DNA of 64,000 nucleotides from the NCBI GenBank assembly GCA_965215605.1, contig OZ244070.1, forward strand, positions 2,304,001 to 2,368,000, written 5' to 3'. The position numbers and the translations under genes are program-made. Origin of the DNA: an uncultured Candidatus Binatia bacterium. Its GTDB lineage: Bacteria > Desulfobacterota > Binatia > UBA9968 > JAJDTQ01. Below the pieces are notes generated by a model. The model did not search any database. It saw only the letters and a program-made list of their open reading frames with translations, and was not told the DNA's origin. Below are positions 1,985-17,060 of this stretch, in pieces; the stretch's first letter is position 1, and each line of letters opens with the position of its first letter.

Positions 1985-4702
1985 GTGAAGGATCTCTATC
2001 GTTTCTGGGGAAAGGCCCGCCCGGCATCTCTCGACAACGGTCCTGACTGGCATCCGCTCGCTTTTCACTGCCTCGATGTGGCCGCGGTGGGAGAGGCTCT
2101 GCTCACTCAACACCGAGGCCTTGGCGAGAGCCTCTTTCGTCTGCTGGGTCTGTCGCAAGAGCAAGCCGTTCCGCTGATCTGTTACCTCCTCTGTCTGCAT
2201 GACGTCGGCAAATTCGCCAAAAAGTTTCAGGCCAAGGCACCGGAACTCTACCCCGATTGTTTCGGTGACGACCCGCAGGGATTCCCGCATCGTTACGATC
2301 ACGGCGCCGGAGGCTTGCGCATGTTCGACGCCGGTTCCGATGCGTTCGGGCTGCCGAAGGCAACCGGCAACGATGTCTGGCGCCCCCTGATTTCCGCGGT
2401 CACCGGTCATCATGGCTCGCCTCCGCAGCCGGGCAGTGAGGAAAGCCTGATCACGTTGCGAAGCGATTTCGGGCGCGCTGGGATCGAAAACGCCCACCGG
2501 TTCATGCTGCAAGCGGGTGAGCTGTTCGCTGTCCCCGCGGATCTTCCCTCCATAGACCGCCGCCGGTGTCGGCGCGCGTCACACGCGGTCGCCGGTGTGG
2601 CCGTGTTGGCCGACTGGATCGGATCGAATCAGGATTGGTTCCGATATCGTGAGCCGCTTCAAGACCTTGAGGCCTACTGGCACTATGCCCGGGAACGAGC
2701 GGGATGTGCGGTGACCGACTCGGGCGTGCTGCCGAAAGTCATAGGCGACCATCTTCGTTATGAAGACCTGATCGGCGCCGACTCAGCGCCGAGTCCGATG
2801 CAGGAATGGGCTCTGTCGGTGGACATTCCGACCGGCCCCGCACTCTTCATGATCGAGGACGAGACCGGCAGCGGGAAGACCGAAGCCGCGCTGATGCTTG
2901 CCCACCGGCTGATGATGTCTGGCCGGGCCGATGGTTTGTACGTCGCTTTGCCCACGATGGCGACGGCGAATGCCATGTTTGACCGGCTCGCGGTGGCTCA
3001 TCGCCATCTTTTCGCGCCGGGCGTCGAGCCTTCCATCGCGTTGGCCCACGGCGCTCGTGGCCTGCACAATGGCTTTCGGGCCGCCGTCGTCAAGGGCGGC
3101 CGATCGGAGGAACCCTATTCGGAATCCGCGGAGTCGGATCAAGAAACCGAAACGACTGCATCGGCCTCATGCGCCACATGGATTGCGGACGACCGCCGCC
3201 GCACGTTCCTGGCCGACGTCGGCGCTGGAACCATTGATCAGGCGTTGTTATCGGTATTGCCGAACCGGCACCAATCACTGAGGCTGTTAGGATTGATGCG
3301 CCGCGTGCTTATACTCGACGAGGTGCACGCCTATGACGCGTACATGCAGCGTGAAATGGAGCGGTTGCTCGAGTTCCAGGCGGGGCTCGGCGGCTCTGCG
3401 ATTCTTTTGTCGGCCACGTTGCCGAGGTCGATACGGAAACGACTGACCGATGCCTACAGGAGCGGTTTGGGTGAGAATTTGAACGGTGGTACCGCCAGCA
3501 TGGACTACCCGCTCGCCACCGTCTGCGCCGCCGACGTTCATTCAGGCACGAAGGTGAACAGTCGAGTCGAGCGCGCGCGTTCGCTTCCTGTCCGTTTTCT
3601 CCGGTCTTCCGACGACGCAATGAGCGAGATCCATCAGGCGGCCTGCGCCGGCAAGGCCGTTCTCTACATACGCAACACCGTCGACGACGTACTCGACGCC
3701 CATGCGGCCCTGGAGGCGCGGGGACTGGAGCCTCGCCTCTTCCATGCCCGGTTCGCTCTGGTAGACCGACTCAACATCGAAAAGGAGGTCGTCGCGTTGT
3801 TCGGCAAACACGGCAAGTCCGCCGAACGCGCCGGCCAGGTGCTCATCGCAACACAGGTGGTCGAGCAATCGCTGGACCTGGACTTCGATGTACTGGTCAC
3901 CGACCTCGCCCCCATCGACCTGTTGATCCAGCGGGCGGGAAGGCTTTGGCGGCACCATCGTCCAGAGCGCCGCGGACAGCCGGAGTTGCGGGTGGTAGCA
4001 CCGGAACCCGTCGCCAACGCGGACGAGGCATGGTTCGGCCGGGCGTTTCCGCGCGCACAGTACGTCTACCGAGATTACGCCCGCCTGTGGCTGACGGCGC
4101 GGACGTTGGAGGAGGCCTGTATCATCGAGAGCCCTGGCGGCATGCGGACGCTCATCGAAGCCGTCTACGGGGAGGATGCGGATCAATGCCTGCCGGGCGA
4201 ATTGCAGGGCAGCTTTTTCGACGCAGAGGGCAGGGCAGGCGCGGAGCGAGGTGTGGCGACGACCAACGTCCTGGACCTGGGCAAGGGTTATGTGCGGGAC
4301 GGCGGCGCCTGGGACAGAGATGTCCGAACGCCGACCCGACTCGTTGACGACCCACATGTCACCTTGCGGCTCGCTCGTGTCCGCGACGGCCGGATTGAAC
4401 CCTATGCCCACGGTGACGCTCCTCGCGAGCCGTGGGTCGGATGGCGGCTCAGCGAGGTGAACGTTGCGGCCCGGCGTGTTCGCGGCGAGGCCTTGCCGCA
4501 AGAACACGCTGAGGCCGCGCGAGTGGCCAAAGCGGACTGGACAAGGTACGATTCGGATAACATCCTTGTAGTGCTTGAGGAGACCGGTGTCCCCGGTGCT
4601 CCTCTGCGAGGGAAGGCGGTTTCCGGGAGCGAGCCTCAACGAGAAGTTCTCCTGAACTATGACTCCCGGAAGGGAGTGACGTGGGAGAAGAACGAAGAAT
4701 GA
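1985..4702 (+). CDS. cas3: CRISPR-associated HD nuclease/helicase Cas3
   Basis: HCLDVAAV, LHDVGK, GHHG, LADW (HD domain); ETGSGKT, DEVH, LSAT, QVVEQSLDLDFD, QRAGRLWRH (SF2 helicase). Confidence 0.97.
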   Translation: MKDLYRFWGKARPASLDNGPDWHPLAFHCLDVAAVGEALLTQHRGLGESLFRLLGLSQEQAVPLICYLLCLHDVGKFAKKFQAKAPELYPDCFGDDPQGFPHRYDHGAGGLRMFDAGSDAFGLPKATGNDVWRPLISAVTGHHGSPPQPGSEESLITLRSDFGRAGIENAHRFMLQAGELFAVPADLPSIDRRRCRRASHAVAGVAVLADWIGSNQDWFRYREPLQDLEAYWHYARERAGCAVTDSGVLPKVIGDHLRYEDLIGADSAPSPMQEWALSVDIPTGPALFMIEDETGSGKTEAALMLAHRLMMSGRADGLYVALPTMATANAMFDRLAVAHRHLFAPGVEPSIALAHGARGLHNGFRAAVVKGGRSEEPYSESAESDQETETTASASCATWIADDRRRTFLADVGAGTIDQALLSVLPNRHQSLRLLGLMRRVLILDEVHAYDAYMQREMERLLEFQAGLGGSAILLSATLPRSIRKRLTDAYRSGLGENLNGGTASMDYPLATVCAADVHSGTKVNSRVERARSLPVRFLRSSDDAMSEIHQAACAGKAVLYIRNTVDDVLDAHAALEARGLEPRLFHARFALVDRLNIEKEVVALFGKHGKSAERAGQVLIATQVVEQSLDLDFDVLVTDLAPIDLLIQRAGRLWRHHRPERRGQPELRVVAPEPVANADEAWFGRAFPRAQYVYRDYARLWLTARTLEEACIIESPGGMRTLIEAVYGEDADQCLPGELQGSFFDAEGRAGAERGVATTNVLDLGKGYVRDGGAWDRDVRTPTRLVDDPHVTLRLARVRDGRIEPYAHGDAPREPWVGWRLSEVNVAARRVRGEALPQEHAEAARVAKADWTRYDSDNILVVLEETGVPGAPLRGKAVSGSEPQREVLLNYDSRKGVTWEKNEE

Positions 4703-6396
4703 CCGATCCGGTGACGGCCGATGCGCCGCAGGCCGTCTTCAACCTGATCGACGAGCCATGGTTGCCCATGAGGCGCCGAAGCGGCGTTATCGAGTACGTG
4801 CAGCCGTGGCGAGTCACCGAAGGGATTGCGGACGATCCGTTTACAGCCTTTGCCTGGCCGCGACCGGACTTCAATGGAGCGGCGCACGAACTCTTGATCG
4901 GTCTGCTGTCCACCGCCGCCGCGCCCGACGACGACGAAGAATGGAAGAACTGGTGGCGGGAACCGCCGTCGCCGGACGTACTGAGAGAACGCTTCGCGAC
5001 GGTCGGTCACGCTTTTAACCTGGACGGCCCCGGCCCGAGGTTTTTGCAGGATCTCGGTGCGCTCGAAGGTGCTGAAGACAAGGAGATCGCGGCGTTGTTG
5101 GTTGACGCGCCGGGTGCACAGACCCTGCGCAACAACGCGGACTTGTTCGTGAAGCGGGGAGGCGTGCCGGTGCTCTCCCGCGCGGCCGCTGCAATGGCGC
5201 TCTTCACGCTGAACGCCTTCGCTCCCGCAGGTGGTGCTGGCCATCGCACGTCGCTTCGCGGCGGCGGTCCGATGACGACGTTGGTCGTCACAGACCACTC
5301 CGAATACGGCGCCACTCTATGGGGCCGGCTCTGGCCGAACATCGAAAGCCGGGAACAGGTCGAAGCTCGCGCAATAGGTTCGAAGCTTGATGAAGATCCC
5401 GGTACGGTCTTTCCTTGGCTCATCCCCACCCGTACGTCCGACCCGAAGGCTGGCGGCAGACCGACGACTCCTGCGGATGTCCATCCTCTGCATGTCTATT
5501 GGGGCATGCCCAGGCGCATCCGATTGTTGTTCGAGGATGCCGAGGACCGCAGATGCGGACTTACGGACGTCCGGGACTCCGTGGTTGTGCCACGGTATCG
5601 AACCAGGAACTACGGCAACAACTATTCTGACGGATTCCAGCACCCGCTGACACCATACTACCGTCCGAAGCCGACCTCGGCGGAAAAGCTCGCCGTCCAT
5701 CCGAGTCCCGGTGGCATCAGCTACCGCCTGTGGCCGGGGATCGTCGTCCCGAGCAACGACAACCTTCGCGAACCTGCGCAGGTAGTCCGGCAGTGGCACC
5801 AGGAACGGTTCCGCAACGCCCTGCGAGCACGTTTCGTCGCATTCGGTTACGACATGGACAACATGAAGGCGCGCGCCTGGCTCGAAGGCGAGGTGCCGTT
5901 ATGGCACTTCGACGACGACGTGGAAGAGTGGCTTTGTAAGTTCATCCAGAGGGCGACCGCGGGCGCCGACACGGTGACTCGCTTGATGACCGGTGCCGTA
6001 AAATCTGCTCTGTACGATCGTCCAAAGGACGCGGACGGCGACTATGGCTTTCTCGCTGAACGTTTCTACCGTGACACGGAAGCAGAATTTTATGCGGCTC
6101 TCGGCCAGTCCGTGTCGATGATCCAGGCGGACCCGGACAACGACGACCCCACCATGGAGGTGCGCCGGGGCTGGGCGCCGGTGATGGAGAAGGCGGCCTT
6201 GCGCTTGTTCGACGAGTACGCTCCCTCCGACGGCCTGGAGAATCGGGACATGCACCGTTACGTCAGGGCAAGGTTCTACTTGGCTCTTGCGCTTCGCGGG
6301 CGTGGGAAGAATGGCAAGGCCCTGTTCGAACGCGACCTCGGCATTCCATCGCCGGAGAGTTCGCGGCCACGTGCCCGCAAAAAGGAGGCTGCATGA
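4699..6396 (+). CDS. cas8e: Type I-E Cascade large subunit Cas8e (Cse1/CasA)
   Basis: FNLIDEPWLP, FLQD, GGAGHRTSLRGGGP, YWGMPRRIRL, HPLTPY; ATG overlaps the cas3 stop (ATGA). Confidence 0.95.
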   Translation: MTDPVTADAPQAVFNLIDEPWLPMRRRSGVIEYVQPWRVTEGIADDPFTAFAWPRPDFNGAAHELLIGLLSTAAAPDDDEEWKNWWREPPSPDVLRERFATVGHAFNLDGPGPRFLQDLGALEGAEDKEIAALLVDAPGAQTLRNNADLFVKRGGVPVLSRAAAAMALFTLNAFAPAGGAGHRTSLRGGGPMTTLVVTDHSEYGATLWGRLWPNIESREQVEARAIGSKLDEDPGTVFPWLIPTRTSDPKAGGRPTTPADVHPLHVYWGMPRRIRLLFEDAEDRRCGLTDVRDSVVVPRYRTRNYGNNYSDGFQHPLTPYYRPKPTSAEKLAVHPSPGGISYRLWPGIVVPSNDNLREPAQVVRQWHQERFRNALRARFVAFGYDMDNMKARAWLEGEVPLWHFDDDVEEWLCKFIQRATAGADTVTRLMTGAVKSALYDRPKDADGDYGFLAERFYRDTEAEFYAALGQSVSMIQADPDNDDPTMEVRRGWAPVMEKAALRLFDEYAPSDGLENRDMHRYVRARFYLALALRGRGKNGKALFERDLGIPSPESSRPRARKKEAA

Positions 6397-6953
6397 CGAA
6401 CCCGACGGCATCCGCCAGGGCCGTTTCGGTCGCATTCGAGTGGTGGCGCGGGCTGAATCCGACGGATTCTGTGCCGTCCGGTCGCCAGCGGGCGGGCTCG
6501 GCGCGACTGCGGCGAGCCGCTACGCCCCTTGAAGTAATCCAGGAGCCGGAGGCGTTGCGGTTGATCGCGAGGCTGCCGCGTGACCCGGAGCGGGTCGCCA
6601 TTCTCGCGGGGGTGCTGGCCTTCGTGCGGGAGACGGAGACACAGCGCGTGGCCCGGGCCGTGGGCCGCACGGGGCTTGACGACGACAAGTCGGCCCTCCT
6701 GTCGGAAAACCGCTTTAGACGCCTGCTTCAGGTTCCTGTCTGCGACCTCCTGGAGCCGATGCGCCGGCTCGTTCGCATGACGAAGGGGACGCTCAACGTC
6801 CACGACCTTTCCAGTTCGATCCTGTATTGGAACGACGCAGTGAAGAAGCGCTGGATATTCGACTATTACGGGGTCGGTGCCGCAGGCGAGAGCGGTGCCG
6901 CGGGTTCGCCCACTCCTGACCGAATCGAAGAACGGGAACGCGACAATGGCTGA
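6393..6953 (+). CDS. cas11: Type I-E small subunit Cas11 (Cse2/CasB)
   Basis: WW...ARLRRA, LSENRFRRLLQ, W...YY C-terminal motif; operon position. Confidence 0.92.
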   Translation: MTNPTASARAVSVAFEWWRGLNPTDSVPSGRQRAGSARLRRAATPLEVIQEPEALRLIARLPRDPERVAILAGVLAFVRETETQRVARAVGRTGLDDDKSALLSENRFRRLLQVPVCDLLEPMRRLVRMTKGTLNVHDLSSSILYWNDAVKKRWIFDYYGVGAAGESGAAGSPTPDRIEERERDNG

Positions 6954-7998
6954 CTTTCTGCAACTGCATCTCCTTACCGCCTACGGTCCTTCGAACCTGA
7001 ACCGGGACGATACCGGTCGGCCCAAGAGCGTGGTCTTCGGCGGCGTGCCGCGACTGCGTGTTTCTTCGCAGAGCCTGAAGCGAGCCTGGCGTGCCTCCGA
7101 GGTCTTCGCCGAGAAACTCGAGGGTCACCTTGCGGCCCGCACACAAAGACTCGGCAAGGACGTTCTTGATCGGCTGCGGGAAGACGGTGCGGACGAGGAC
7201 AAGGCCTTGGAGATCGCGCGAACAATTGCAGGCATCTTCGGAAAGGTCAAGAGCGAGAAAGACGATGCCCCAACGTTCACGGAGCAGCTCGCTTTCGTGT
7301 CTCCTGGGGAACAGGAAAGGGCGTTCGCGCTTGCCGGCAGGATGCTTGCCGGGGAAGTTTCCGAGAAGCCATCGCCGGATGACTTGCTTCGGAGCGCCGA
7401 TGAGGCGGCCGATATCGCGATGTTCGGGCGAATGCTCGCCGACAATCCGAAGTTCAACCGGGAGGCGGCGGTGCAAGTCGCACACGCCGTCACAACCCAT
7501 CGCGCTATGGCGGAGGATGACTACTACACCGCCGTCGATGATCTGAAGTCGCGCGATGAGCTGGACGACGCGGGGGCCGGATTCGTTGGCGTGCAGGAAT
7601 TCGGCGCTGGAGTGTTCTACCTCTATATCTGTGTGGATCGGGAGCTCCTACTGTCCAATCTGGACAATTTGCAGCCTCTTCATGATTCGAGCTTGGCCGC
7701 CCTTGTCGAAGCCGCCGCCACCGTCGCGCCGGGCGGTAAGCAGGCGAGCTTTGCCAGCCGTGCCCGCGCATTCTATGCGCTCGGCGAGAAGGGTTCGGCG
7801 CAACCTCGCAGCCTCGCTGCCGCATTCCTGAAGCCGGTGACAGGCGACGACCAGGGCGTCGAGTCCATCACAGCCCTTGAGGAGTTCCGGGACCGGCTCG
7901 ATGGAGCCTATGGGCCGTGCGCCGATGATCGCTACACGATGAACGTTGCATCCGGTGAGGGGACGCTTCGGGATCTCCTCGCATTCTCGATCGGGTGA
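6946..7998 (+). CDS. cas7: Type I-E backbone Cas7 (CasC)
   Basis: FLQLHLLTAYGPSNLNRDDTGRPK, RVSSQSLKRAWR, DIAMFGRM, EDDYYTAVDD. Confidence 0.96.
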   Translation: MADFLQLHLLTAYGPSNLNRDDTGRPKSVVFGGVPRLRVSSQSLKRAWRASEVFAEKLEGHLAARTQRLGKDVLDRLREDGADEDKALEIARTIAGIFGKVKSEKDDAPTFTEQLAFVSPGEQERAFALAGRMLAGEVSEKPSPDDLLRSADEAADIAMFGRMLADNPKFNREAAVQVAHAVTTHRAMAEDDYYTAVDDLKSRDELDDAGAGFVGVQEFGAGVFYLYICVDRELLLSNLDNLQPLHDSSLAALVEAAATVAPGGKQASFASRARAFYALGEKGSAQPRSLAAAFLKPVTGDDQGVESITALEEFRDRLDGAYGPCADDRYTMNVASGEGTLRDLLAFSIG

Positions 7999-8002
7999 CG
8001 CC

Positions 8003-8722
8003 ATGCGCTTTCTCGTCTTCACCCTTTACGCCCCTATGGCTTCGTTCGGCGAGATCGCGGTGGGGGAACGGCGCATGAGTTGGGCTCGGCCCGGTCGGTC
8101 CGCGGTCCTTGGTCTCGTGGCCGCGGCCCAGGGAATCGACCGCGTGGACGAGGGTGCCCACCAGCAACTGGATGCCGGTCTTTACTACGCCGTTAGGACC
8201 GATGCGGCGGGCCGGCCGCTCATCGACTATCACACGGCTCAGACTCCGAAGGCTCGCAAGGGGCAGAGTTTTGCGACCCGGCGGGAAGAATTGGAATCGG
8301 ACGATATCAACACGGTTCTTTCCAGCCGGGAGTGGCGGGCGGATGCGTACTTCACGGTCGCGTTGTGGCCGCGACCGGAACGGGCCATCGACCTTGAAGA
8401 GATCGCCGGGGCATTGCGCAATCCGCGTTTCACGCTCTACGTGGGACGCAAGGCAGCGCCGCTCGGTCTGCCCATGGCCCCCGAGATCATCGAAGCCGAC
8501 ACCTTCATGGCAGCCCTTGACGCCCGACGGCCGAATGACGAGGAACGAAGCGTCTTACAGCGAATCGGTATCGACGGGGTGGAGCCCGGCGCCATCGCGT
8601 TCGACCACGACGCGCCCGGAGCGCCGGTGGAAACGCGCGTCGAACGGCGGCGCGATGCGGTTGCGAGCCGCGTCAGGTGGCAGTTCGCCGACAGACTGGA
8701 ACGGGTCGTGATTCCCCGATAG
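8003..8722 (+). CDS. cas5: Type I-E Cas5 (CasD)
   Basis: LYAPMASFG, PGRSAVLGLVAAAQGIDR, DYHT, LYVGRKA. Confidence 0.95.
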   Translation: MRFLVFTLYAPMASFGEIAVGERRMSWARPGRSAVLGLVAAAQGIDRVDEGAHQQLDAGLYYAVRTDAAGRPLIDYHTAQTPKARKGQSFATRREELESDDINTVLSSREWRADAYFTVALWPRPERAIDLEEIAGALRNPRFTLYVGRKAAPLGLPMAPEIIEADTFMAALDARRPNDEERSVLQRIGIDGVEPGAIAFDHDAPGAPVETRVERRRDAVASRVRWQFADRLERVVIPR

Positions 8723-8739
8723 TGCGAGGGTTGACGCGG

Positions 8740-9426
8740 ATGCTTTACCTTTCTCGCGCCCGCCTCAGACGCGATGCTTCGGTAAGCGCTCTCGCGCCAC
8801 TGCTGCTGGGAAAGACCGGAAGAAGCGACGCGTCGCAGCAACCGGGACATCATCTCGTCTGGTCACTCTTCGCCGACGGCTTCCAACGACAGCGCGATTT
8901 TCTCTGGCGTGAAATGGCACACGGCGTGTTCTACATCCTGTCGGCCCGTTGGCCGGAAGACCGACACGGACTGTTCGAGATCGCGGAACCTAAACGCTTC
9001 ACCCCTTCGCTTGCGGCCGGAGATAGCCTGGGTTTTGCATTGCGCGCCAATCCGGTCATCCGCCGCCGCCACGCGGACCGGCGGCGTTCCGTGAAGCACG
9101 ATGTCGTCATGGATGCACTGCGCAACTCGGAGGGCAACCGCGCCGGACGACGTCTGAGGGCCGTGCGCGAACAGGGCCTCGCATGGCTGGAACGGCAGGC
9201 AGGGAAGTCGGGGTTCGAGATACTGTCGGATGGCGTGCGAATCGATGGATACGAGCAACATCGCGTCACCCGCAAGGGGGCCGCGCGCGCACTGGAATTC
9301 TCAACCGTCGACTTCGAGGGACTGCTGACCGTACGCGACCCTGCGGCGCTTCTGACCGCCATCGGCCACGGCTTTGGCGCATCCAAGGCATACGGCTGCG
9401 GGCTCATGCTCATCCGCCGGGCATGA
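8740..9426 (+). CDS. cas6e: Type I-E Cas6e endoribonuclease (CasE)
   Basis: MLYLSR, HHLVWSLF, FALRANP, C-terminal GFGASKAYGCGLM glycine loop. Confidence 0.95.
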   Translation: MLYLSRARLRRDASVSALAPLLLGKTGRSDASQQPGHHLVWSLFADGFQRQRDFLWREMAHGVFYILSARWPEDRHGLFEIAEPKRFTPSLAAGDSLGFALRANPVIRRRHADRRRSVKHDVVMDALRNSEGNRAGRRLRAVREQGLAWLERQAGKSGFEILSDGVRIDGYEQHRVTRKGAARALEFSTVDFEGLLTVRDPAALLTAIGHGFGASKAYGCGLMLIRRA

Positions 9427-9518
9427 GAGCAGGCGAGTAATGACCGCGACTCGCGCCGACGCGCATGGCCGGATCGGGAAGGGCCCCGGCGGACCTCAAT
9501 GGGCGGGAGAAACACCCC

Positions 9519-10714
9519 ATGGAATGGCAGGATGTCCGACGCCGGATCGATGAGGGCGAAGACCGGCACACGGAACTCAAGCGGGGGCTGGGCGATCTGT
9601 CCGCGGTCGGGAAGGCGATGTGTGCCTTCGCCAACACCGAGGGCGGCCTTGTCATTCTGGGAGTCGAAGACTCAAGGGGGATAACCGGGGTCGAGGAGGC
9701 GGCCGAGAAGGTGCAGGAACGCCTGAGTTCGTTTCTGCAAACGGGTTGCAGCGCACCTGTTCACGCTCGTACCGGCCGCTTCGAGGATTCAGCGGGCTGG
9801 GTGCACTGGATTGAAGTTCCTCGGCAACGCGGGTTCGAGCCCCTGCGTTACGACGGCCGGGTGTGGGTTCGTCGCGGGCGCTCCAGCGTTGAGCCGTCGG
9901 CGATGGAACTACAGGAACTCTACAATGCGTTCGGGTACATTCTCACCGAAGAACGCGCCGTCCTCGATGCAACGCCGACGCACATCGATCTGGAAGCCTT
10001 CCGCTCCTATCTGCAACGCCTGGGGTTCGACACGACGGACGATCCGCAACCGGACAGTGTAGACGACCTGCGCAACCGGGACGTGGTTGTCGAGATCGGC
10101 GGCGACTTGCGCGCAAGCCTCTACGGAGTCCTGGCCTTCGGGAAGGACCCGCAGCGCTACACGCGGACGCGCGACTTTCGCATCGAATGTGTCGCGTATG
10201 CGGGCGACGACCGCGCGTCCGAGGTATTGCAGTTAGCCGATGCGGCGGGGCGTCTCGACGAACAGGTCGAAAGGGCGACGGGATGGTTTCTCGGGCTCGG
10301 CCGCTACGAGTCGTATGAAAACCTTAGACGCGATGACCGTTACCTGTTGCCGCGGCGGGCCATTCGGGAAGCGTTGGCGAATGCGGTGACACACCGGGAC
10401 TATGCGATCACGGGTTCAAGAATCCTGTTCGAGGTGTTCGCCCGTCGCGTGGACGTGACCAGTCCGGGGACGCTGCCCAACCACATGACGGTGGAACGAG
10501 TCCGCGCGGGCGCCAACCCGCGATCAAGAAACGAATCCCTGGCGCACTTCATGGCCGGTATGGGATTCATGGAACGGCGTGGGCGCGGTTGGCTGATCAT
10601 GCGCAAGGAAATGCAGGCTTTCAACGGCACGGAGCCGGAACTGCTCCACGATGAACCCAATCAGTTCGTGCGCGTGACGTTTCTTCTCGACCCCCAAGGT
10701 AGCGGGAGGACGCT

Positions 10715-10718
<4 letters not shown>
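9519..10718 (+). CDS. Schlafen/AlbA_2 domain plus RecG-C-terminal-like HATPase domain protein
   Basis: GEDRHTELKR and CAFANTEGGLVILGVED (AlbA_2); AIREALANAVTHRDY, SPGTLP, RNESLA, MERRGRG (HATPase_c_4-like); GGAGA RBS before ATG 9519. Confidence 0.88.
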
Positions 10719-11924
<1,206 letters not shown>

Positions 11925-11951
11925 GCCCAATGTTCCAATTCCCAGCGGCTT

Positions 11952-12590
11952 GTGACCTTGACCTCAATCACTAGGCATTTGGCAAAATGCTCCCTTCACC
12001 CTGAGCGGGTGATTTTTTTGGACATCGAGACCACCGGGCTGAATCCTTACCGTGACGAATTCACTGTGATCGGATGGGCGTACGGCGGTCACGTGAACAC
12101 CATGGTCAAAGGCATGGGTTCAGACCGGCTCTGTGAAGACCTCCGACGCGCGAGGTGGTTGGTTACGTTCAATGGGGTCCGCTTCGACACGAAGTTTTTG
12201 GCGCGAGCTTTCCCTCGGATAGCCCTACCGAGTGTCCATTTCGACCTCCTGAAACTCTGCCGACGAGTTGGACTGAGGGGCGGTCAGAAGGCGATTGAAC
12301 ATGTTCTTGGAATCGGCCAGAGAGACGAAGCGACAAGACTCACTGGTGCGGAAGCGGTGGAACTTTGGCGTCGATACGTCCAAGGAGACGGTGAGGCATT
12401 GCAGAGACTCATCCTGTACAACAGAGCCGATGTCGCAGCTATGGGACCGATCCTTGATGAAATCGTGCAACGAATGGGCCTTCCGCTGGATTCATCCGTG
12501 AAGAAAGTGCGTTTTAGGGATTGGTCAGCGCCGCCCGGTTGGCAAGTGTTGCCAGACACCGGGCCCTGTTCGGCGCAGTTACGGTTTTAG
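11952..12590 (+). CDS. RNase H-like (YprB/RNase_H_2-type) DEDDy 3'-5' exonuclease
   Basis: ExoI FLDIETTG, ExoII VTFNGVRFD, GGQKAIE, ExoIII YNRAD; start uncertain; same frame as cas2. Confidence 0.85.
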   Translation: MTLTSITRHLAKCSLHPERVIFLDIETTGLNPYRDEFTVIGWAYGGHVNTMVKGMGSDRLCEDLRRARWLVTFNGVRFDTKFLARAFPRIALPSVHFDLLKLCRRVGLRGGQKAIEHVLGIGQRDEATRLTGAEAVELWRRYVQGDGEALQRLILYNRADVAAMGPILDEIVQRMGLPLDSSVKKVRFRDWSAPPGWQVLPDTGPCSAQLRF

Positions 12591-12711: not shown

Positions 12712-13670
12712 GCGTTCCCCGCCCGCGCGGGGATGAACCGGTGCTTTGTGTTCTCGATAGCTGCCGGGAATGGCGTTCCCCGCCCGCGCGGGGATGAACC
12801 GCGTGAGTGCGCCTCTGTGAGTACTCGGTCTGGGCGTTCCCCGCCCGCGCGGGGATGAACCGCAGCCCCCACCACGTATCGAGGCATCCAGCACGCGTTC
12901 CCCGCCCGCGCGGGGATGAACCGATCTTTAACTGTGCGGTAGCACCAACCACGAAGCGTTCCCCGCCCGCGCGGGGATGAACCGTGTCAAGGGACTACGC
13001 ACGACCGCTAGATATCGCGTTCCCCGCCCGCGCGGGGATGAACCGATTAGCCACGACGAACTGAAGAGCCTTCGCACGCGTTCCCCGCCCGCGCGGGGAT
13101 GAACCGGTCGGGCTCAAGGTCCAGGCCACCATGAGTCCGCGTTCCCCGCCCGCGCGGGGATGAACCGCCGTATACTACAGTCGCAGGTAATGACACCGGG
13201 CGTTCCCCGCCCGCGCGGGGATGAACCGCGACGTGGGAGGCTGTTCGAGAGATAGCGGGCGCGTTCCCCGCCCGCGCGGGGATGAACCGCGCACGTCGAA
13301 GCTCTGGGTTTGGATTGCCCAGCGTTCCCCGCCCGCGCGGGGATGAACCGCTCGCTCGGCCCTTTAGCCGCGTAGTCTGCGAGCGTTCCCCGCCCGCGCG
13401 GGGATGAACCGGAGCGTCAGATCGACCTGCTCGACGCCCGGATGCGTTCCCCGCCCGCGCGGGGATGAACCGGAGACGACAATGAAGCTGTCAATGGCAA
13501 CCGAAAACTGCACACATTTGGCAATCGAAAACTGCACACTTTCGAGAAGAGCGTCCGTGCAGAAGTGACGCTCTGCGGTTGGTTCGGTTCATGGGTCATG
13601 GTCTGGACGGAGGGAGCGGAGCGAGCGGAGTCCAGGCCATGACGGGTTGCAGATCGGCAGGACATGGCGC

Positions 13671-14468
13671 TCACAGGACGCCTCCCTGGCGAGGCTGCTC
13701 GTCGGCTGACCGCATGAGGTTGCGGTGTTCGCGCATCCTGTAGCTGTTGCCGCGGATGTTGACGATGTGGCAGTGGTGGAGGAGCCGGTCGATGAGGGCA
13801 GCAGCCATGACCTCGTCGCCGAGGACGCTGCCCCAGTCCTCGAAGCCCTTGTTGGAGGTGAGCACGGTGGAGGCGCGTTCGTGCCTGGCGTTGATGAGCT
13901 GGAAGAAGAGCACGGCGCCGTCCTGGGTAACCGGCAGGTAGCCGATCTCGTCCACCAAGAGCAAGGCGGGATAGGTGAGGACCCGCAGCCGGCGGGAGAG
14001 CTCGCCTGCGGCCTTGGCCTCCAGCAGCGACTCGATCAGTCCGGCCAGGGTTCCGTAGTAGACGCGGCGGCCGGATTCGGCGGCGGCGACGGCTAGGCTG
14101 ATAGCCAGATGAGTCTTGCCGACCCCGGGCGGCCCGAGAAAAATGACGTTTTCGCGGCGATCCAGGAAGCCGAGTTCGTGGAGGCTCTCGATCTGCTCGC
14201 GCTTGATGCTGGGCTGGAAGGCGAAGTCGAACTGGGCCAGGGTCTTCACGGCCGGCAGCCGCGACGAGCGCATGGCGGTCTGGAGGCGGCGGTTGTTGCG
14301 CAACCCGATCTGGGCGTCCAACAACTGCTCGATAGCCTCGCTGGCGGTGGCCGCCCCGCTGTCGGCCTGGGCCAGGACGTCGTCGACGGCCTCGAGCGCG
14401 CCCGGCATCTTCAGATCCGCCAGCATCGCCCGCAGCCGGTCGCGCCGGTTGCCTGCCTCGGCCCTCAT
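13671..14468 (-). CDS. istB: IS21 helper ATPase IstB
   Basis: GPPGVGKTHLA Walker A, LLVDEIGY Walker B, LTSNK, DRLLHH, GNSYR. Confidence 0.95.
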   Translation of the reverse strand: MRAEAGNRRDRLRAMLADLKMPGALEAVDDVLAQADSGAATASEAIEQLLDAQIGLRNNRRLQTAMRSSRLPAVKTLAQFDFAFQPSIKREQIESLHELGFLDRRENVIFLGPPGVGKTHLAISLAVAAAESGRRVYYGTLAGLIESLLEAKAAGELSRRLRVLTYPALLLVDEIGYLPVTQDGAVLFFQLINARHERASTVLTSNKGFEDWGSVLGDEVMAAALIDRLLHHCHIVNIRGNSYRMREHRNLMRSADEQPRQGGVL

Positions 14469-15487
14469 GACACCGCCTCCGCGTAGACCCTGAGCGAGCG
14501 CCGCTCGACGTCTACGGTGACGGGCAGGGGGCGCCGGGCTTGCTGTGGAAGCCTGTGCATACCAAGGCGCCGATACGGGCAACTCGCCAACGGCAGCAGC
14601 GCCTGCTGCTCGTCGCGCTCGAAGCGGTCCACCGGGCGCTCCCTGGTGGTGCCGTGCCAGCGCCGGTTCGCGGTTCCCTCAAGCCACAAGCGCGCCTGCT
14701 CGTTCAGGTCCTCGTCGTTCAGGAACTCCCGGCCGTAGAAGAAGTTGTTGCGGATGTAGCGGATCGGCCGCTCCACCTTGCCCTTGGTTTGGGCTCGGTA
14801 CGGCCGGCATGCCCGAGGCCGGAACCCCCAGTGCGCGGCGAACCGCAAGAAGTCCGCGTTCAACACCAACTCGCCCCCGCCCGCGCGGCCGTCCGACAGC
14901 ACCACCGTCCGCATCTGGTCGAACAAGAGCTCCTGCGGCACCCCGCCGAAGCACTCGAAGGCGCTCTCCAGCCCTTCGATCAGCACTGCCATCGTCTGCC
15001 GCCGGTAAAACCGCAGCCACAACAGCCGGGAGTGGCTCAGAACCATCACCAAAGCATGCCGCCGCCCCCAGGGAAGCGTGAACGTCGCAAAGTCCACCTG
15101 CCCCTGCCGTCCCGCCGGCGTCTCGAACCGCACCACCGCCTCCGCCGGCTCCCTTGGCCGCACCGCCCGAACGTACTCCCTCACACGGACGTACCCGCCC
15201 GTGTAGCCTGCCCCTCGTACCTCGTCGTACAGCCGCTTCGCCGACAACCGCGGATACTCCTCCAGTCGCGCCTCGATGATCCCCTTGTACGGATCCAGCT
15301 TGTGACACACCGGCGGCCTCGCCCTGTATCGCGTCCCGCCTCCCGACAGATCCCGGTCCAACTGTCCTGTCTCGATCCACTCGTGGATCGTCCGGCGACT
15401 CACCCCGAACCGCCGCGACAGCTCCGTCTTCGTTACACCCCGTTCCAGATAGTGCCTAAGCAGCATCCTCGTCTCCCATCCGTGCAT
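14465..15487 (-). CDS. istA: IS21 DDE transposase IstA
   Basis: N-terminal HTH, RFETPAGRQGQVDF, FGGVPQELLFDQM, QTKGKVER. Confidence 0.95.
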   Translation of the reverse strand: MHGWETRMLLRHYLERGVTKTELSRRFGVSRRTIHEWIETGQLDRDLSGGGTRYRARPPVCHKLDPYKGIIEARLEEYPRLSAKRLYDEVRGAGYTGGYVRVREYVRAVRPREPAEAVVRFETPAGRQGQVDFATFTLPWGRRHALVMVLSHSRLLWLRFYRRQTMAVLIEGLESAFECFGGVPQELLFDQMRTVVLSDGRAGGGELVLNADFLRFAAHWGFRPRACRPYRAQTKGKVERPIRYIRNNFFYGREFLNDEDLNEQARLWLEGTANRRWHGTTRERPVDRFERDEQQALLPLASCPYRRLGMHRLPQQARRPLPVTVDVERRSLRVYAEAVS

Positions 15488-17060
15488 CTGTGCTCCGCTC
15501 CGTTCCTGTTGGTCTTGCCAACAGCCTGGACCCGAGCACTCACGCCAGCAATCAATGTGTGCAGTTTTCGATTGCCATAAATGGGAAATTTACAGTTGCC
15601 ACCAACAGAAGCGCAAGGACACCATCGAGCGTTCCCCGCCCGCGCGGGGATGAACCGGCGTCCTCCCCCGCTATCGTGACGGGCACTCCGCGTTCCCCGC
15701 CCGCGCGGGGATGAACCGGCGGTGTGTCCCACCGGCAAACTGCCAATGGGGCGTTCCCCGCCCACGCGGGGATGAACCGACTAGTAATTAGGGAATTTCA
15801 ACCCACTAACCGCGTTCCCCGCCCGCGCGGGGATGAACCGGAGATTTCGGCGTTCTCGATCCTCGCGTCCAGGCGTTCCCCGCCCGCGCGGGGATGAACC
15901 GGCCCTAAGTCGGCGGGGGAATCGAGCGTCTGAGCGTTCCCCGCCCGCGCGGGGATGAACCGTTTCTGCGACGGTCTGCTAGTTCGAACGCTCTGCGTTC
16001 CCCGCCCGCGCGGGGATGAACCGATACCCGGCCAGCGGATAGCGCGGCATCCGGCGCGTTCCCCGCCCGCGCGGGGATGAACCGCGAAGGATTTCCCCGT
16101 CGCCAGATCAAAAAAAGCGTTCCCCGCCCGCGCGGGGATGAACCGTCCAGCCGTAGCACGCTCGTTGATACGCGCACGCGTTCCCCGCCCGCGCGGGGAT
16201 GAACCGACTCGGATGGGTCGCAGACATTTCGATATGAGGCGTTCCCCGCCCGCGCGGGGATGAACCGCTGCTGGTCCACACAGGCAGCGGCCTGGCGATG
16301 CGTTCCCCGCCCGCGCGGGGATGAACCGCCTACCATCGCATGTGATGTAACTATTCCGCGGCGTTCCCCGCCCGCGCGGGGATGAACCGGCTTTGTGGAT
16401 CGTTTGTCCGGCTGAGTCTGCGCGTTCCCCGCCCGCGCGGGGATGAACCGCCTTGTGTCCTATCCATCGCTGGCTCCTCCTGGCGTTCCCCGCCCGCGCG
16501 GGGATGAACCGCAGCATCAGGCCGAGCAGGATCACCACCAGAAGCGTTCCCCGCCCGCGCGGGGATGAACCGGCCGGGTTCTTGCTGCAGCTGGTGTTCG
16601 GCACGCGTTCCCCGCCCGCGCGGGGATGAACCGTGTAAAGGGGCTACGCACGACAGCTAGATATCGCGTTCCCCGCCCGCGCGGGGATGAACCGGGTTCG
16701 ACGCAGCGGGAGTCCCCACCGTTCAAGCGTTCCCCGCCCGCGCGGGGATGAACCGATACGCACGTACGGGTTTGATAATTAGCCCACGCGTTTCCCGCCC
16801 GCGCGGGGATGAACCGGTGTCGGAATTCTGCTCAAACTGGTGCGCAAAGCGTTCCCCGCCCGCGCGGGGATGAACCGGCCAAGGAGTGGGACCCCCAGCC
16901 GCCCCGGTAGCGTTCCCCGCCCGCGCGGGGATGAACCGGCGGCGTCGGTCAGGAAGGCGACTTCGTCCCCATGCCAAGCATAGGGGTGATCCCACTCAGA
17001 CCGAGTGCAAAGAGTACAGGCCCGGCGAAGCTGTTTGCTGTGCCCTCGCGTATGAGGAGG

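Follow-up and report, generated by a model that had tools for sequence, protein, structure and literature searches.

The stretch of DNA analyzed here, hereafter the window, comprises 64,000 nucleotides from an uncultured Candidatus Binatia bacterium and carries a complete type I-E CRISPR-Cas locus that holds a Schlafen-ATPase gene between cas6e and cas1. The genes, protein domains and repeat array of this locus are as follows.

1985-4702, plus strand: cas3 (Pfam Cas3_HD, 4.3e-40)
4681-6396, plus strand: cse1 (Pfam CRISPR_Cse1, 7.4e-107)
6393-6953, plus strand: cse2 (Pfam CRISPR_Cse2, 3.3e-12)
6877-7998, plus strand: cas7 (Pfam Cas_CT1975, 1.5e-91)
7946-8722, plus strand: cas5 (Pfam Cas_Cas5d, 2.1e-33)
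8677-9426, plus strand: cas6e (Pfam CRISPR_assoc, 2.7e-48)
9427-9518, plus strand: spacer between cas6e and the Schlafen-ATPase gene, 92 nt, with GGGAG 9 nt 5' of ATG 9519
9519-10718, plus strand: Schlafen-GHKL gene ('Schlatpase', TrlG-like), 399 aa; the alternative ATG 9465 would give 417 aa
9558-9893, plus strand: SLFN_AlbA_2 nuclease domain (Pfam, residues 32-143 of the 417-aa form)
9558-9581, plus strand: E-x4-E-x-K motif EDRHTELK (translation)
9621-9635, plus strand: CAFAN 'Schlafen box' (translation)
10365-10682, plus strand: GHKL (Bergerat) ATPase domain core (N-box and Pfam)
10365-10403, plus strand: GHKL N-box R-E-x3-N-A-x2-H-R-D-Y (motif)
10413-10682, plus strand: HATPase_c_4 (Pfam)
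10715-10720, plus strand: GTGATG, in which the TGA of the Schlafen-ATPase gene (10716-10718) overlaps the candidate cas1 starts GTG 10715 and ATG 10718
10715-11647, plus strand: cas1 (TIGR03638 Cas1e, 362 bits, 1.6e-108)
11601-11924, plus strand: cas2 (Cas_Cas2CT1978, 8.8e-34)
11952-12590, plus strand: RNase_H_2/DEDDh-type 3'-5' exonuclease, 3' of cas2 (PF13482, 2.1e-29; PADLOC DEDDh 'CAS associated', 1.7e-6)
12712-16938, plus strand: CRISPR array with 29-nt repeats, split by an IS21-family element
12712-13472: CRISPR array part 1, 13 repeats
13473-15628: IS21-family element within the array (IstA 14465-15487 and IstB 13671-14582, both on the minus strand)
15629-16938: CRISPR array part 2, 22 repeats

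A preliminary description of this DNA had claimed a gene of about 400 codons at the cas6e/cas1 junction, and such a gene is indeed present (399 aa, ATG 9519, stop at 10718). The start proposed there, 9427, is merely the base that follows the cas6e stop codon. When the upstream ATG is included, the open reading frame spans 9465-10718 (417 aa); the metagenome collection's own entry of the protein has 399 aa, close homologues mostly have 390-417 aa, and DNA homology with loci lacking cas genes begins at 9504-9520. Based on these protein lengths and the onset of homology, ATG 9519 is the likely start, which leaves the 92-nt gap between cas6e and the gene. A sequence scan found no promoter-like or terminator-like sites at either the cas6e/gene or the gene/cas1 junction; it returned 12 sites in total, near the shuffle mean of 9.5, including a weak terminator-like match (5 pairs) inside the Schlafen-ATPase gene at 9709-9724. 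Judged from this arrangement, the gene and the cas genes most likely share a transcript.

The overlap between the TGA stop and the cas1 start, also claimed in the preliminary description, is found in the window, whereas in the other type I-E loci that carry the gene (L002, L009, L013 and L018) 32-157 nt separate its stop codon from the first candidate cas1 start. The specific link to adaptation and Cas1 that had been drawn from the overlap is therefore not supported, the arrangement being present only in the window and absent from the four other type I-E loci. What survives of the earlier proposal is its other half, an abortive-infection RNase co-expressed with the cas genes, which most likely remains the best reading by analogy with characterized relatives, and with which the position of the gene agrees in terms of co-transcription.

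Both domains assigned to the protein score above their Pfam cut-offs, SLFN_AlbA_2 (PF04326) with 1.5e-17 and 64.6 bits against 25.3, and HATPase_c_4 (PF13749) with 1.2e-17 and 64.1 bits against 26, and the catalytic motifs are intact, so that the EDRHTELK motif and the HATPase-like domain described earlier are both confirmed. In an alignment of 78 relatives, E14, E19 and K21 are kept in 76, the exceptions being the domain-deleted copies L059 and L068, and C-x-F-A-N is kept in 73-76; the GHKL residues E284 and N288 and the S-P-G motif are conserved in all 78, and R-G-R-G-W in 75-78. The near invariance of the catalytic E-x4-E-x-K residues argues for an active nuclease. The GHKL domain is followed directly by the end of the protein; Pfam and the AF2 model (pLDDT 91.1) reveal no HTH, no other DNA-binding domain and no additional domain of any kind, which bears out the earlier statement that a C-terminal wHTH is absent. 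The protein also has neither TrlF as a partner nor a sensor domain that would activate or restrain the nuclease, an observation that we count against reading it as autonomous.

Structural homology was assessed by comparing a profile of 51 homologues with the PDB, which matched 3lmm (3.9e-32), the tRNase CbCash (6.9e-12) and mammalian SLFN5/11/12/13/14, and by running Foldseek on the AF2 model. The latter retrieved 3lmm (DIP2311) at 9.2e-19, the rSAMD9 tRNase domain, the Schlafen C-lobe fold of SLFN14, SLFN5, SLFN12, SLFN13 and 2kyy (E 7e-5 to 2e-3), and the ATPase domains of ThkA, CpxA, QseC and PDK1/2/4 (E 2e-3 to 2e-2). No NCBIfam family matches the protein. PADLOC holds no stand-alone model for it, and matches it only with pAgo and SIR2-APAZ-type models; the pAgo match covers the N-terminal part of the model (positions 55-423 of 1121, 9.1e-19). 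A homodimer prediction with two copies and ATP (score 0.00, mark 0.42) speaks neither for nor against oligomerization. Taken together, the protein is a minimal Schlafen-GHKL 'Schlatpase'; its tRNase activity and ATP switch are putative and are proposed by analogy with characterized members of the family.

To place the gene in context, relatives were collected from the metagenome collection as 80 loci (L001-L080), in a search centered on the Schlafen-ATPase gene. The gene occupies the cas6e-cas1 slot of a full type I-E locus in 4 of the 80, is retained in a decayed type I-E locus in 7, and adjoins a divergent type I locus in 2. In 29 loci it lies 9-42 nt downstream of a TrlF/Ppl-like ATPase of about 920 aa, which matches both the NCBIfam 'TrlF family AAA-like ATPase' (L012: 366 bits, cut-off 350) and the anti-phage protein Ppl. 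BREX systems harbor it in 5 of the 80, and 3 copies lie beside a methylase or SNF2 helicase. A further class of 34 loci was labeled 'no defence neighbour' with the neighbors spot-checked, and may hide unrecognized defence genes. The relatives are 50-86% identical and, judging from the organisms named in record titles, span many phyla, while DNA homology across contexts is confined to the open reading frame plus or minus about 15 nt. The ratio dN/dS is 0.07-0.21 in 13 of 13 pairs, some of them drawn from decayed loci and from loci that lack cas, and the relatives outside cas loci are thus under purifying selection.

In the seven decayed type I-E loci the Schlafen-ATPase reading frame is the only gene of the window that is matched at or near full length. 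This appearance of a last gene standing is partly a matter of ascertainment, because a search centered on the Schlafen-ATPase is blind to loci that lost this gene first. Two of the decayed loci (L059 and L068) encode a Schlafen-ATPase without residues ~43-143, and the nuclease domain is deleted in L045 as well as in these two. Two loci (L016 and L017) hold TrlF together with the Schlafen-ATPase gene between remnants of cas6e and cas1, an arrangement that makes loss of TrlF within a type I-E locus a plausible history. CreTA is the model for a safeguard in which the antitoxin depends on Cas proteins; a design of this kind was considered as the main reading and rejected, given that intact copies remain where the cas genes are fragments.

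In the phylogeny of the protein (rows L030, with no single reading frame across the match, and L045 and L078, with reading frames under 300 aa, were left out), the CRISPR-linked copies fall within or next to one clade with UFboot 98 and SH-aLRT 97, in which 12 of 17 rows have a CRISPR context. Full type I-E loci occur on all three deep branches of this clade, with Cas3 58-69% identical. A single supported clade with full type I-E on every deep branch indicates that the association of gene and locus has held steady across considerable divergence. For the five taxa, neither the Cas1-Cas2 tree nor the Cas3 tree is resolved (supports 37-77); the Schlafen-ATPase tree and the Cascade tree both contain the split that joins the window with L002. 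A stable clade linked to type I-E would equally fit a functional link to type I-E, and is counted against an autonomous role. The preliminary description had taken closest homologues in non-cas contexts as the sign of a solo mobile insertion: 67 of the 80 relatives do lie outside cas or CRISPR contexts, but one well-supported clade is tied to type I-E.

The cas6e-cas1 junction was then viewed from the side of the CRISPR locus, using the 80 loci with the closest Cas1 (L089-L168, from the same metagenome collection). None of these contains the Schlafen-ATPase gene, and in one of them Cas1 is 88% identical and the cas6e-cas1 junction is contiguous. Other inserts occupy the junction in 17 of 58 closest-Cas1 loci, so that the junction, described earlier as normally contiguous, is interrupted in some type I-E loci. 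Six of these inserts were scanned, and all six are of toxin-antitoxin type: ParE, MNT plus HepT, MazE plus PIN, UPF0175 plus DUF3368 (twice) and DUF5615. The Schlafen-ATPase gene itself is found at this same position in the window and four other loci, with remnants in seven more. These data suggest that RNase suicide modules have settled repeatedly at the cas6e-cas1 junction of type I-E loci. At the window gene we found no antitoxin-like partner reading frame; the 92 nt after cas6e could not accommodate one, and cas1 overlaps the stop codon. The exonuclease gene after cas2 has no tblastn match in L001-L080, including the four sister type I-E loci, or in L089-L168. The notion of a type I-E variant whose adaptation module is flanked by two nucleases is accordingly not supported, the exonuclease being found solely in the window among the loci compared.

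We favor, with a probability of roughly 0.55, the reading that the gene encodes an autonomous ATP-switched tRNase, a backup abortive-infection effector that rides in the cas operon rather than adding a component to the CRISPR machinery. As its relatives sit mostly in other defence cassettes, the gene is probably a self-contained one for arresting growth upon infection. Under this model, the protein would combine an RNA endonuclease that depends on metal ions, the Schlafen (AlbA_2) domain, with an ATP-binding GHKL domain, and it possesses neither a sensor nor a domain for binding DNA. By analogy with characterized relatives, ATP bound by the GHKL domain would drive oligomerization, which would bring two single-lobe Schlafen domains together to form an active site for tRNA cleavage, and cleavage of tRNA would halt translation and growth, resulting in abortive infection. 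The protein would derive from a TrlG-type protein that has lost the TrlF/Ppl-like PHP-SMC ATPase normally encoded upstream as its partner, and its gene would occupy the cas6e-cas1 slot of a horizontally spreading type I-E locus, a slot that elsewhere holds toxin-antitoxin RNase modules. We infer both the role in abortive infection and independence from Cas proteins, that is, a second-line effector that would be a subunit of neither Cascade nor the Cas1-Cas2 integrase.

The supported clade with full type I-E on each deep branch, and the split shared by the Schlafen-ATPase and Cascade trees, could also reflect an effector coupled to CRISPR, in which the Schlatpase swapped TrlF for type I-E and would be activated by target-bound Cascade/Cas3 or by Cas3-made single-stranded DNA or breaks, so that type I-E interference would gain a target-triggered, tRNA-cleaving abortive arm. 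The L016 and L017 arrangement fits such a swap, the partners across the family target DNA (TrlF/Ppl-like ATPase, BREX, RM, type I CRISPR), and Weickert et al. speculate that such homologues sense structures arising from DNA cleavage. We nevertheless regard this coupling as unlikely, since intact copies under purifying selection persist beside cas fragments and without any trace of cas, the closest Cas1 relatives lack the gene even where Cas1 is 88% identical and the junction contiguous, the cas1 overlap is not conserved, and there is no sign of physical contact between the Schlatpase and any Cas protein.

The tight confinement of cross-context DNA homology to the reading frame, the 50-86% identity over many phyla and the use of the same slot by toxin-antitoxin modules would equally be expected of a selfish, toxin-like addiction cassette, kept because cells that lose or deregulate it are harmed, and landing in permissive slots of defence operons with no benefit to immunity; the growth-restricting phenotype reported for trlG is consistent with this. 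Such a cassette is nonetheless improbable here, considering that it lacks an antitoxin-like partner, that the copies with a deleted nuclease domain in L045, L059 and L068 imply that loss of the nuclease is tolerated, and that a genuine defence gene would likewise be enriched beside others of its kind. Still less credence, to the point of being highly improbable, is given to a non-nuclease regulator that would sense ATP and bind RNA or DNA to control the expression of cas genes, the handling of crRNA or the acquisition of spacers. Proteins of like architecture are often annotated as transcriptional regulators, the plasmid homologues among them as 'transcriptional regulator' or 'RNA-binding domain-containing protein', a preprint puts AlbA_2-wHTH proteins forward as accessory factors of Class 1, and the gene separates the interference module from the adaptation module and, in the window, overlaps the start of cas1; against this weigh the absence of a DNA-binding domain from the Pfam and AF2 results, the nearly invariant nuclease residues, the absence of cas genes to regulate beside most relatives and, once more, the overlap with cas1 that other loci do not share.

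To our knowledge, no stand-alone Schlafen-GHKL member has a known trigger. Schlafen-GHKL is reported as the commonest prokaryotic Schlafen architecture, with 34% HisKinase and 19% HisKinase-HTH in one survey and a share of 58.6% in another. The loci described here provide a natural series, from free TrlF plus gene, through TrlF plus gene in type I-E and the gene alone in type I-E, to the gene alone after decay of cas, which allows one to ask what turns the nuclease on and whether its signal comes from DNA-targeting systems. That the lineage exchanged TrlF (a PHP-nuclease/SMC-like ATPase) for type I-E interference, with DNA degradation by Cas3 or target-bound Cascade as the activating signal, is decidedly doubtful; if true, it would represent a type I CRISPR with a built-in, target-triggered, tRNA-cleaving abortive-infection arm and a DNA-targeting counterpart of type III-Cash signaling without cyclic nucleotides. 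Should the gene prove simply autonomous, it would be an ordinary case of a defence gene nested in another defence operon. The slot finding bears on the long-standing idea that immunity is coupled to dormancy or suicide. The presence of Schlafen-ATPases beside type I CRISPR is already noted in published 2026 surveys. In the literature consulted, we found no printed description of the cas6e-cas1 slot and no printed link of TrlF-TrlG cassettes to type I-E; Supplementary Data 3 of PMC13462974, with its list of the type I-associated cluster, may already include the family.

Among known systems, the TRL locus trlR-trlF-trlG of Photorhabdus laumondii encodes TrlG, described as Alba_2 plus HATPase_c_4 (bioRxiv 10.1101/2020.06.02.129163, PMC7554251). 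Its domains lie at 14-128 and 298-365, versus 14-125 and 299-388 in the window protein (399-aa numbering). The same source reports that trlG mutations relieve growth restriction at 36 C, which indicates that a TrlG-like protein can arrest growth; no such temperature phenotype is known for the window gene. TrlF-gene pairing is annotated on Pseudomonas and Yersinia plasmids, whose TrlF-adjacent homologues, encoded by genes that overlap those annotated 'TrlF family AAA-like ATPase', are 27-29% identical to the window protein over 91% (E 1e-21 to 1e-23). Unlike the TRL operon, the window gene has no adjoining trlF or trlR, and its upstream neighbor is cas6e; the sole TrlF match of the genome (C1:1509046-1511907) is paired with a 32%-identical paralogue of the Schlafen-ATPase.

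The 'Schlatpase' of SLFN-pAgo (RzAgo) is a tandem of SLFN (PF04326) and GHKL (PF13749) that reportedly binds and hydrolyses ATP, tetramerises on ATP and cleaves tRNA via an E-x4-(D/E)-x-K site, and most Schlatpase proteins are stated there to be small, with no further domain or just an HTH (Kuzmenko et al. 2026, 10.64898/2026.05.29.728809). RzAgo and the window protein have in common E-x4-(D/E)-x-K, the (S/C)AFAN box and the GHKL E...N pair, the window residues E284/N288 corresponding to E314/N318 of RzAgo by motif pattern rather than alignment. The window protein lacks the Argonaute sensor core of RzAgo, and guide/target-dependent licensing is therefore inapplicable to it. Among solved structures, the best relative across almost the entire protein is DIP2311 of Corynebacterium diphtheriae (3lmm), a structural-genomics protein whose chain of 583 aa contains extra sequence compared with the window protein; because the global TM is just 0.47, the domain arrangement is either different or flexible.

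Homologues of 'Cluster 1' are reported as Schlafen-ATPases 'tightly associated' with type I CRISPR, uncharacterized and proposed to sense DNA-cleavage products (Weickert, Liu and Strecker 2026, PMC13462974); the accessible text gives for them no operon position, subtype or TrlF link. The same article describes Cash, the type III CRISPR-associated Schlafen, as a tRNase causing growth arrest (PDB 9ylu). Cash and the window protein both contain a Schlafen nuclease domain (the profile match of 6.9e-12 above) and both are CRISPR-linked, but Cash carries the cA4-sensing Csx15 domain and belongs to type III signaling, whereas the window protein carries a GHKL ATPase in a type I-E setting, which makes no cyclic oligoadenylate. 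Finally, a recent study interprets the Schlafen-histidine-kinase-wHTH genes that lie within BREX loci as 'backup suicidal effectors' (NAR 2026, PMC12839542). The BREX Schlafen genes, the toxin-antitoxin modules within CRISPR loci and the window gene all appear to represent RNase effectors housed in DNA-targeting defence operons, the window protein differing from the first in having no wHTH and from the second in having no antitoxin gene.

The window contains a complete type I-E locus. Its genes run cas3, cse1, cse2, cas7, cas5 and cas6e, then an extra gene, then cas1 and cas2, and last an additional gene for an exonuclease.

Features of the type I-E locus and its array in the window
1985-12590, + strand: complete type I-E locus
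9465-10718, + strand: ORF of the extra gene, with SLFN_AlbA_2 (1.5e-17) and HATPase_c_4 (1.2e-17) domains (Pfam)
11952-12590, + strand: stand-alone RNase_H_2/DEDDh-type exonuclease gene, between cas2 and the array leader
Downstream of the I-E genes: CRISPR array of 29-nt repeats, in blocks of 13 (all perfect) and 22 repeats with an IS21-family element between them
13473-15628: IS21-family element interrupting the array
13671-14582, minus strand: IstB ATPase of this element
14465-15487, minus strand: IstA-like rve integrase of this element

The preliminary description had placed a Schlafen and HATPase gene between cas6e and cas1. This was borne out, as both domain scores far exceed the Pfam cut-offs, the TGA of the gene overlaps GTG and ATG candidate starts of cas1, and no further domain was found in the protein with Pfam or in its AF2 model. 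The gene boundary, formerly drawn from 9427, has been revised: ATG 9519, giving 399 aa, is the likely start judging from close homologues (mostly 390-417 aa), the collection entry for the protein (399 aa) and the onset of DNA homology to relatives in other contexts (9504-9520). The proposal of an I-E variant whose adaptation module is flanked by a pair of nucleases did not hold beyond the window, as the exonuclease after cas2 gave zero tblastn matches in four sister I-E loci and 80 cas1-centred loci, and is therefore a separate, apparently recent addition.

A whole-library search with the window protein matched 9512 proteins at E <= 1e-3. Its Schlafen catalytic signature reads EDRHTELK and its Schlafen box CAFAN; in the GHKL part, E284 and N288 of the N-box and the motifs S-P-G and R-G-R-G-W are conserved in 75-78 of 78 relatives. 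Run against solved structures, a profile built from 51 diverse homologues matched DIP2311 (3lmm) over nearly its full length (3.9e-32), the type III tRNase CbCash (6.9e-12) and mammalian SLFN5/11/12/13/14 (1e-7 to 1e-11). The AF2 model was predicted with high confidence (pLDDT 91.1, pTM 0.76), and its top Foldseek match is likewise 3lmm, followed for the N-terminal domain by SLFN14/5/12/13; the C-terminal part retrieves the ATPase domains of histidine kinases and pyruvate-dehydrogenase kinases. A PADLOC pAgo model matches the window protein with its N-terminal positions 55-423.

Relatives were sought in one genome per species, and the 80 loci returned encode proteins 51-87% identical to the query in MAGs whose names span many phyla (Acidobacteriota, Gamma- and Alphaproteobacteria, Spirochaetota, Latescibacterota, Chloroflexota, Actinomycetota, Binatota, Rhodothermota, Gemmatimonadota and Entotheonella). 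Contexts were classified by tblastn with the window Cas proteins, ORF clustering, repeat searches and spot Pfam/PADLOC/NCBIfam scans.

Genomic contexts of the gene among 80 loci of relatives
Full I-E locus, gene between cas6e and cas1: 4/80 (L002, L009, L013, L018)
Decayed I-E locus, cas fragments and/or 1-2 leftover repeats next to the gene: 7/80 (L005, L008, L011, L016, L017, L059, L068)
Directly upstream of a divergent type I locus with I-E-like gene order: 2/80 (L001, L021)
9-42 nt 3' of a gene for a ~920-aa protein, same strand: 29/80 (including L016, L017 and the BREX loci L041, L053)
Inside BREX: 5/80 (L024, L057, L060 without the ~920-aa partner; L041, L053 with it)
Adjoining a DNA methylase or SNF2 helicase: 3/80
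No recognised defence neighbour, neighbours spot-checked only: 34/80

Across these contexts, DNA homology is confined to the ORF plus or minus ~15 nt. In the divergent loci (L001:10001-21111; L021:10001-14098) the gene is linked to type I in a second way; in L001, 87 nt separate it from a downstream cas3 whose 1152-aa product is 31% identical to the window Cas3 and has an N-terminal extension of ~290 aa, and cas7, cas5, cas1 and cas2 come after in I-E-like order. Three copies (L045:10001-10837, L059:10001-10849, L068:10001-10849) are deleted for residues ~43-143, the core of the Schlafen nuclease domain, with the GHKL part still 84-87% identical; leftover CRISPR repeats adjoin those of L059 and L068. 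Two solo loci, L004 (14208-17522) and L007 (14181-17723), encode a conserved protein (1104-1180 aa) some 3 kb downstream of the gene, for which Pfam gave no match at E <= 1e-4. A second, partial copy of the 5' end of the gene is present in L007 (4479-4544), and a short stretch of its 3' end recurs in L004 (11236-11283).

The ~920-aa partner matches the NCBIfam model 'TrlF family AAA-like ATPase' (366 bits in L012, cut-off 350; 327 in L033, just under it) as well as anti-phage Ppl (PADLOC, ~1e-30). TrlF is named after the Photorhabdus 'temperature restriction locus' trlR-trlF-trlG (10.1101/2020.06.02.129163, PMC7554251), in which TrlG is described as an Alba_2 and HATPase_c_4 protein formerly mis-annotated as RecG. 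Because trlG point and stop mutations are reported there to permit growth at 36 C, a TrlG-type protein can, by analogy, arrest growth. Homologues that overlap genes annotated 'TrlF family AAA-like ATPase' are encoded on plasmids of the Pseudomonas syringae group and Yersinia ruckeri; they share 27-29% identity with the window protein over 91%. The genome of the window itself encodes a canonical TrlF (591 bits, cut-off 350; Ppl-like 539 bits) ~0.8 Mb from the window gene. Its gene runs into the start of the next one, which encodes a Schlafen-ATPase paralogue of 479 aa with 32% identity to the window protein; the pair spans G000:C1:1509046-1513168 (L169:2047-6169) and is flanked by an enoyl-CoA hydratase gene. 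At other places the contig carries four further paralogues, which are more distant (26-31% identity). Since pairing with TrlF recurs in relatives and the window gene stands without it, its product is classified from sequence as a TrlG-type protein missing its TrlF.

A careful maximum-likelihood tree of the Schlafen-ATPase (78 rows; L030, L045 and L078 left out) recovered one 17-row clade (UFboot 98, SH-aLRT 97) containing all five full I-E copies, five remnants, the two copies next to other type I loci and five rows without CRISPR trace; each of its three deep branches carries full I-E loci. TrlF-linked copies are scattered throughout the tree and also form the neighbouring group, whose join is weakly supported (57/31) and which includes L016 and L017. 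In L016 (7674-11441), TrlF and the gene precede a cas1 N-terminal fragment, and in L017 (6958-11173) cas5 and cas6e C-terminal fragments precede TrlF and the gene, so that the cassette appears to sit exactly at the former cas6e-cas1 junction. In the most economical history, a TrlF-TrlG cassette would have inserted between cas6e and cas1 in an I-E locus, TrlF would then have been lost, and the I-E locus with its Schlafen-ATPase would have spread horizontally and repeatedly decayed. Horizontal spread is suggested by Cas proteins 58-87% identical among organisms named as different phyla; the history as a whole is inferred from an unrooted tree.

The junction itself accepts other genes. Among 58 loci of the Cas1-centred set (L089-L168) with cas6e and cas1 in order, 41 are contiguous and 17 carry an insert of 0.4-2.1 kb (15 of 420-940 nt, two of ~2 kb). 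All six inserts scanned are of toxin-antitoxin type (ParE; MNT and HepT; MazE and PIN; UPF0175/Phd and DUF3368 twice; DUF5615). Examples of inserts lie at L122:694-1277, L148:2628-3262, L142:2082-2719, L150:4940-5741, L157:2729-3223 and L141:5425-5985. The boundary between interference and adaptation modules thus seems to receive RNase-type suicide modules repeatedly, a slot occupied by Schlafen-ATPase and toxin-antitoxin inserts alike. That the window gene is a selfish toxin-like cassette is quite improbable.

We favour, at a probability of about 0.55, an autonomous backup abortive-infection effector. An effector coupled to Cas3 or Cascade is rather unlikely, and the boldest reading, in which type I-E interference would set off a Schlafen tRNase, is improbable. 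A link of some kind to CRISPR is favoured by the monophyletic association, which spans substantial Cas divergence, and by a (window, L002) split common to the Schlafen-ATPase and Cascade trees, with five taxa only and Cas1-Cas2 and Cas3 unresolved. Against a role within the CRISPR machinery, the gene is intact where cas3, cse1, cas6e and cas1 are mere fragments, a survival that is partly an ascertainment effect because the first scan could find only loci still carrying the gene. Its dN/dS is 0.07-0.21 in 13/13 pairs, including the decayed-locus pair L008-L011 (0.13) and the pair without cas context L004-L007 (0.21). The Cas1-centred scan, unbiased for this gene, found it in 0/80 metagenome loci with Cas1 65-88% identical, and in eight of these at 79-88% identity (L089-L096) cas6e and cas1 are contiguous. 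The overlap with cas1 is unique to the window. The interpretation given in the preliminary description is partly supported: its abortive-infection reading is kept, and its tie to cas1 through the overlap is not. E14, E19 and K21 are conserved in 76/78 relatives, the other two being copies missing the whole Schlafen domain, and a non-nuclease regulator is very unlikely.

[quoted passage not shown] Co-transcription of the gene with the cas operon is probable; its junctions showed neither promoter-like nor terminator-like sites in a sequence scan, and one weak terminator-like match lies inside it, with the scan total close to shuffle expectation.

The association of Schlafen-ATPases with type I CRISPR is itself already published: Weickert et al. 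(2026, PMC13462974) report a tight association of homologues with ATPase domains, their uncharacterised Cluster 1, with three kinds of system (BREX, RM and type I CRISPR). AlbA_2-wHTH proteins are reported near Class 1 loci (2025 preprint), and BREX-embedded Schlafen-histidine-kinase-wHTH genes are read as backup suicidal effectors (NAR 2026, PMC12839542). Our literature search did not find in print the TrlF-orphan origin, the cas6e-cas1 slot common to Schlafen-ATPases and toxin-antitoxin modules, the decay series or the cross-phylum spread of the locus, parts of which supplementary tables may cover. Slfn-HisKinase was found to be the commonest prokaryotic Schlafen architecture (Taboada et al.). 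The window protein differs from characterised relatives in lacking the Argonaute, Csx15, Ig-like or HTH modules that serve them as sensors, as well as TrlF, and its SLFN and GHKL tandem corresponds to the 'Schlatpase' supradomain named by Kuzmenko et al. (2026 preprint, 10.64898/2026.05.29.728809). In SLFN-pAgo, according to that preprint, the GHKL domain binds and hydrolyses ATP, single-lobe Schlafen domains come together in pairs through ATP-driven tetramerisation to give a bilobed nuclease resembling the mammalian one, and tRNA is cut by an E-x4-(D/E)-x-K site.
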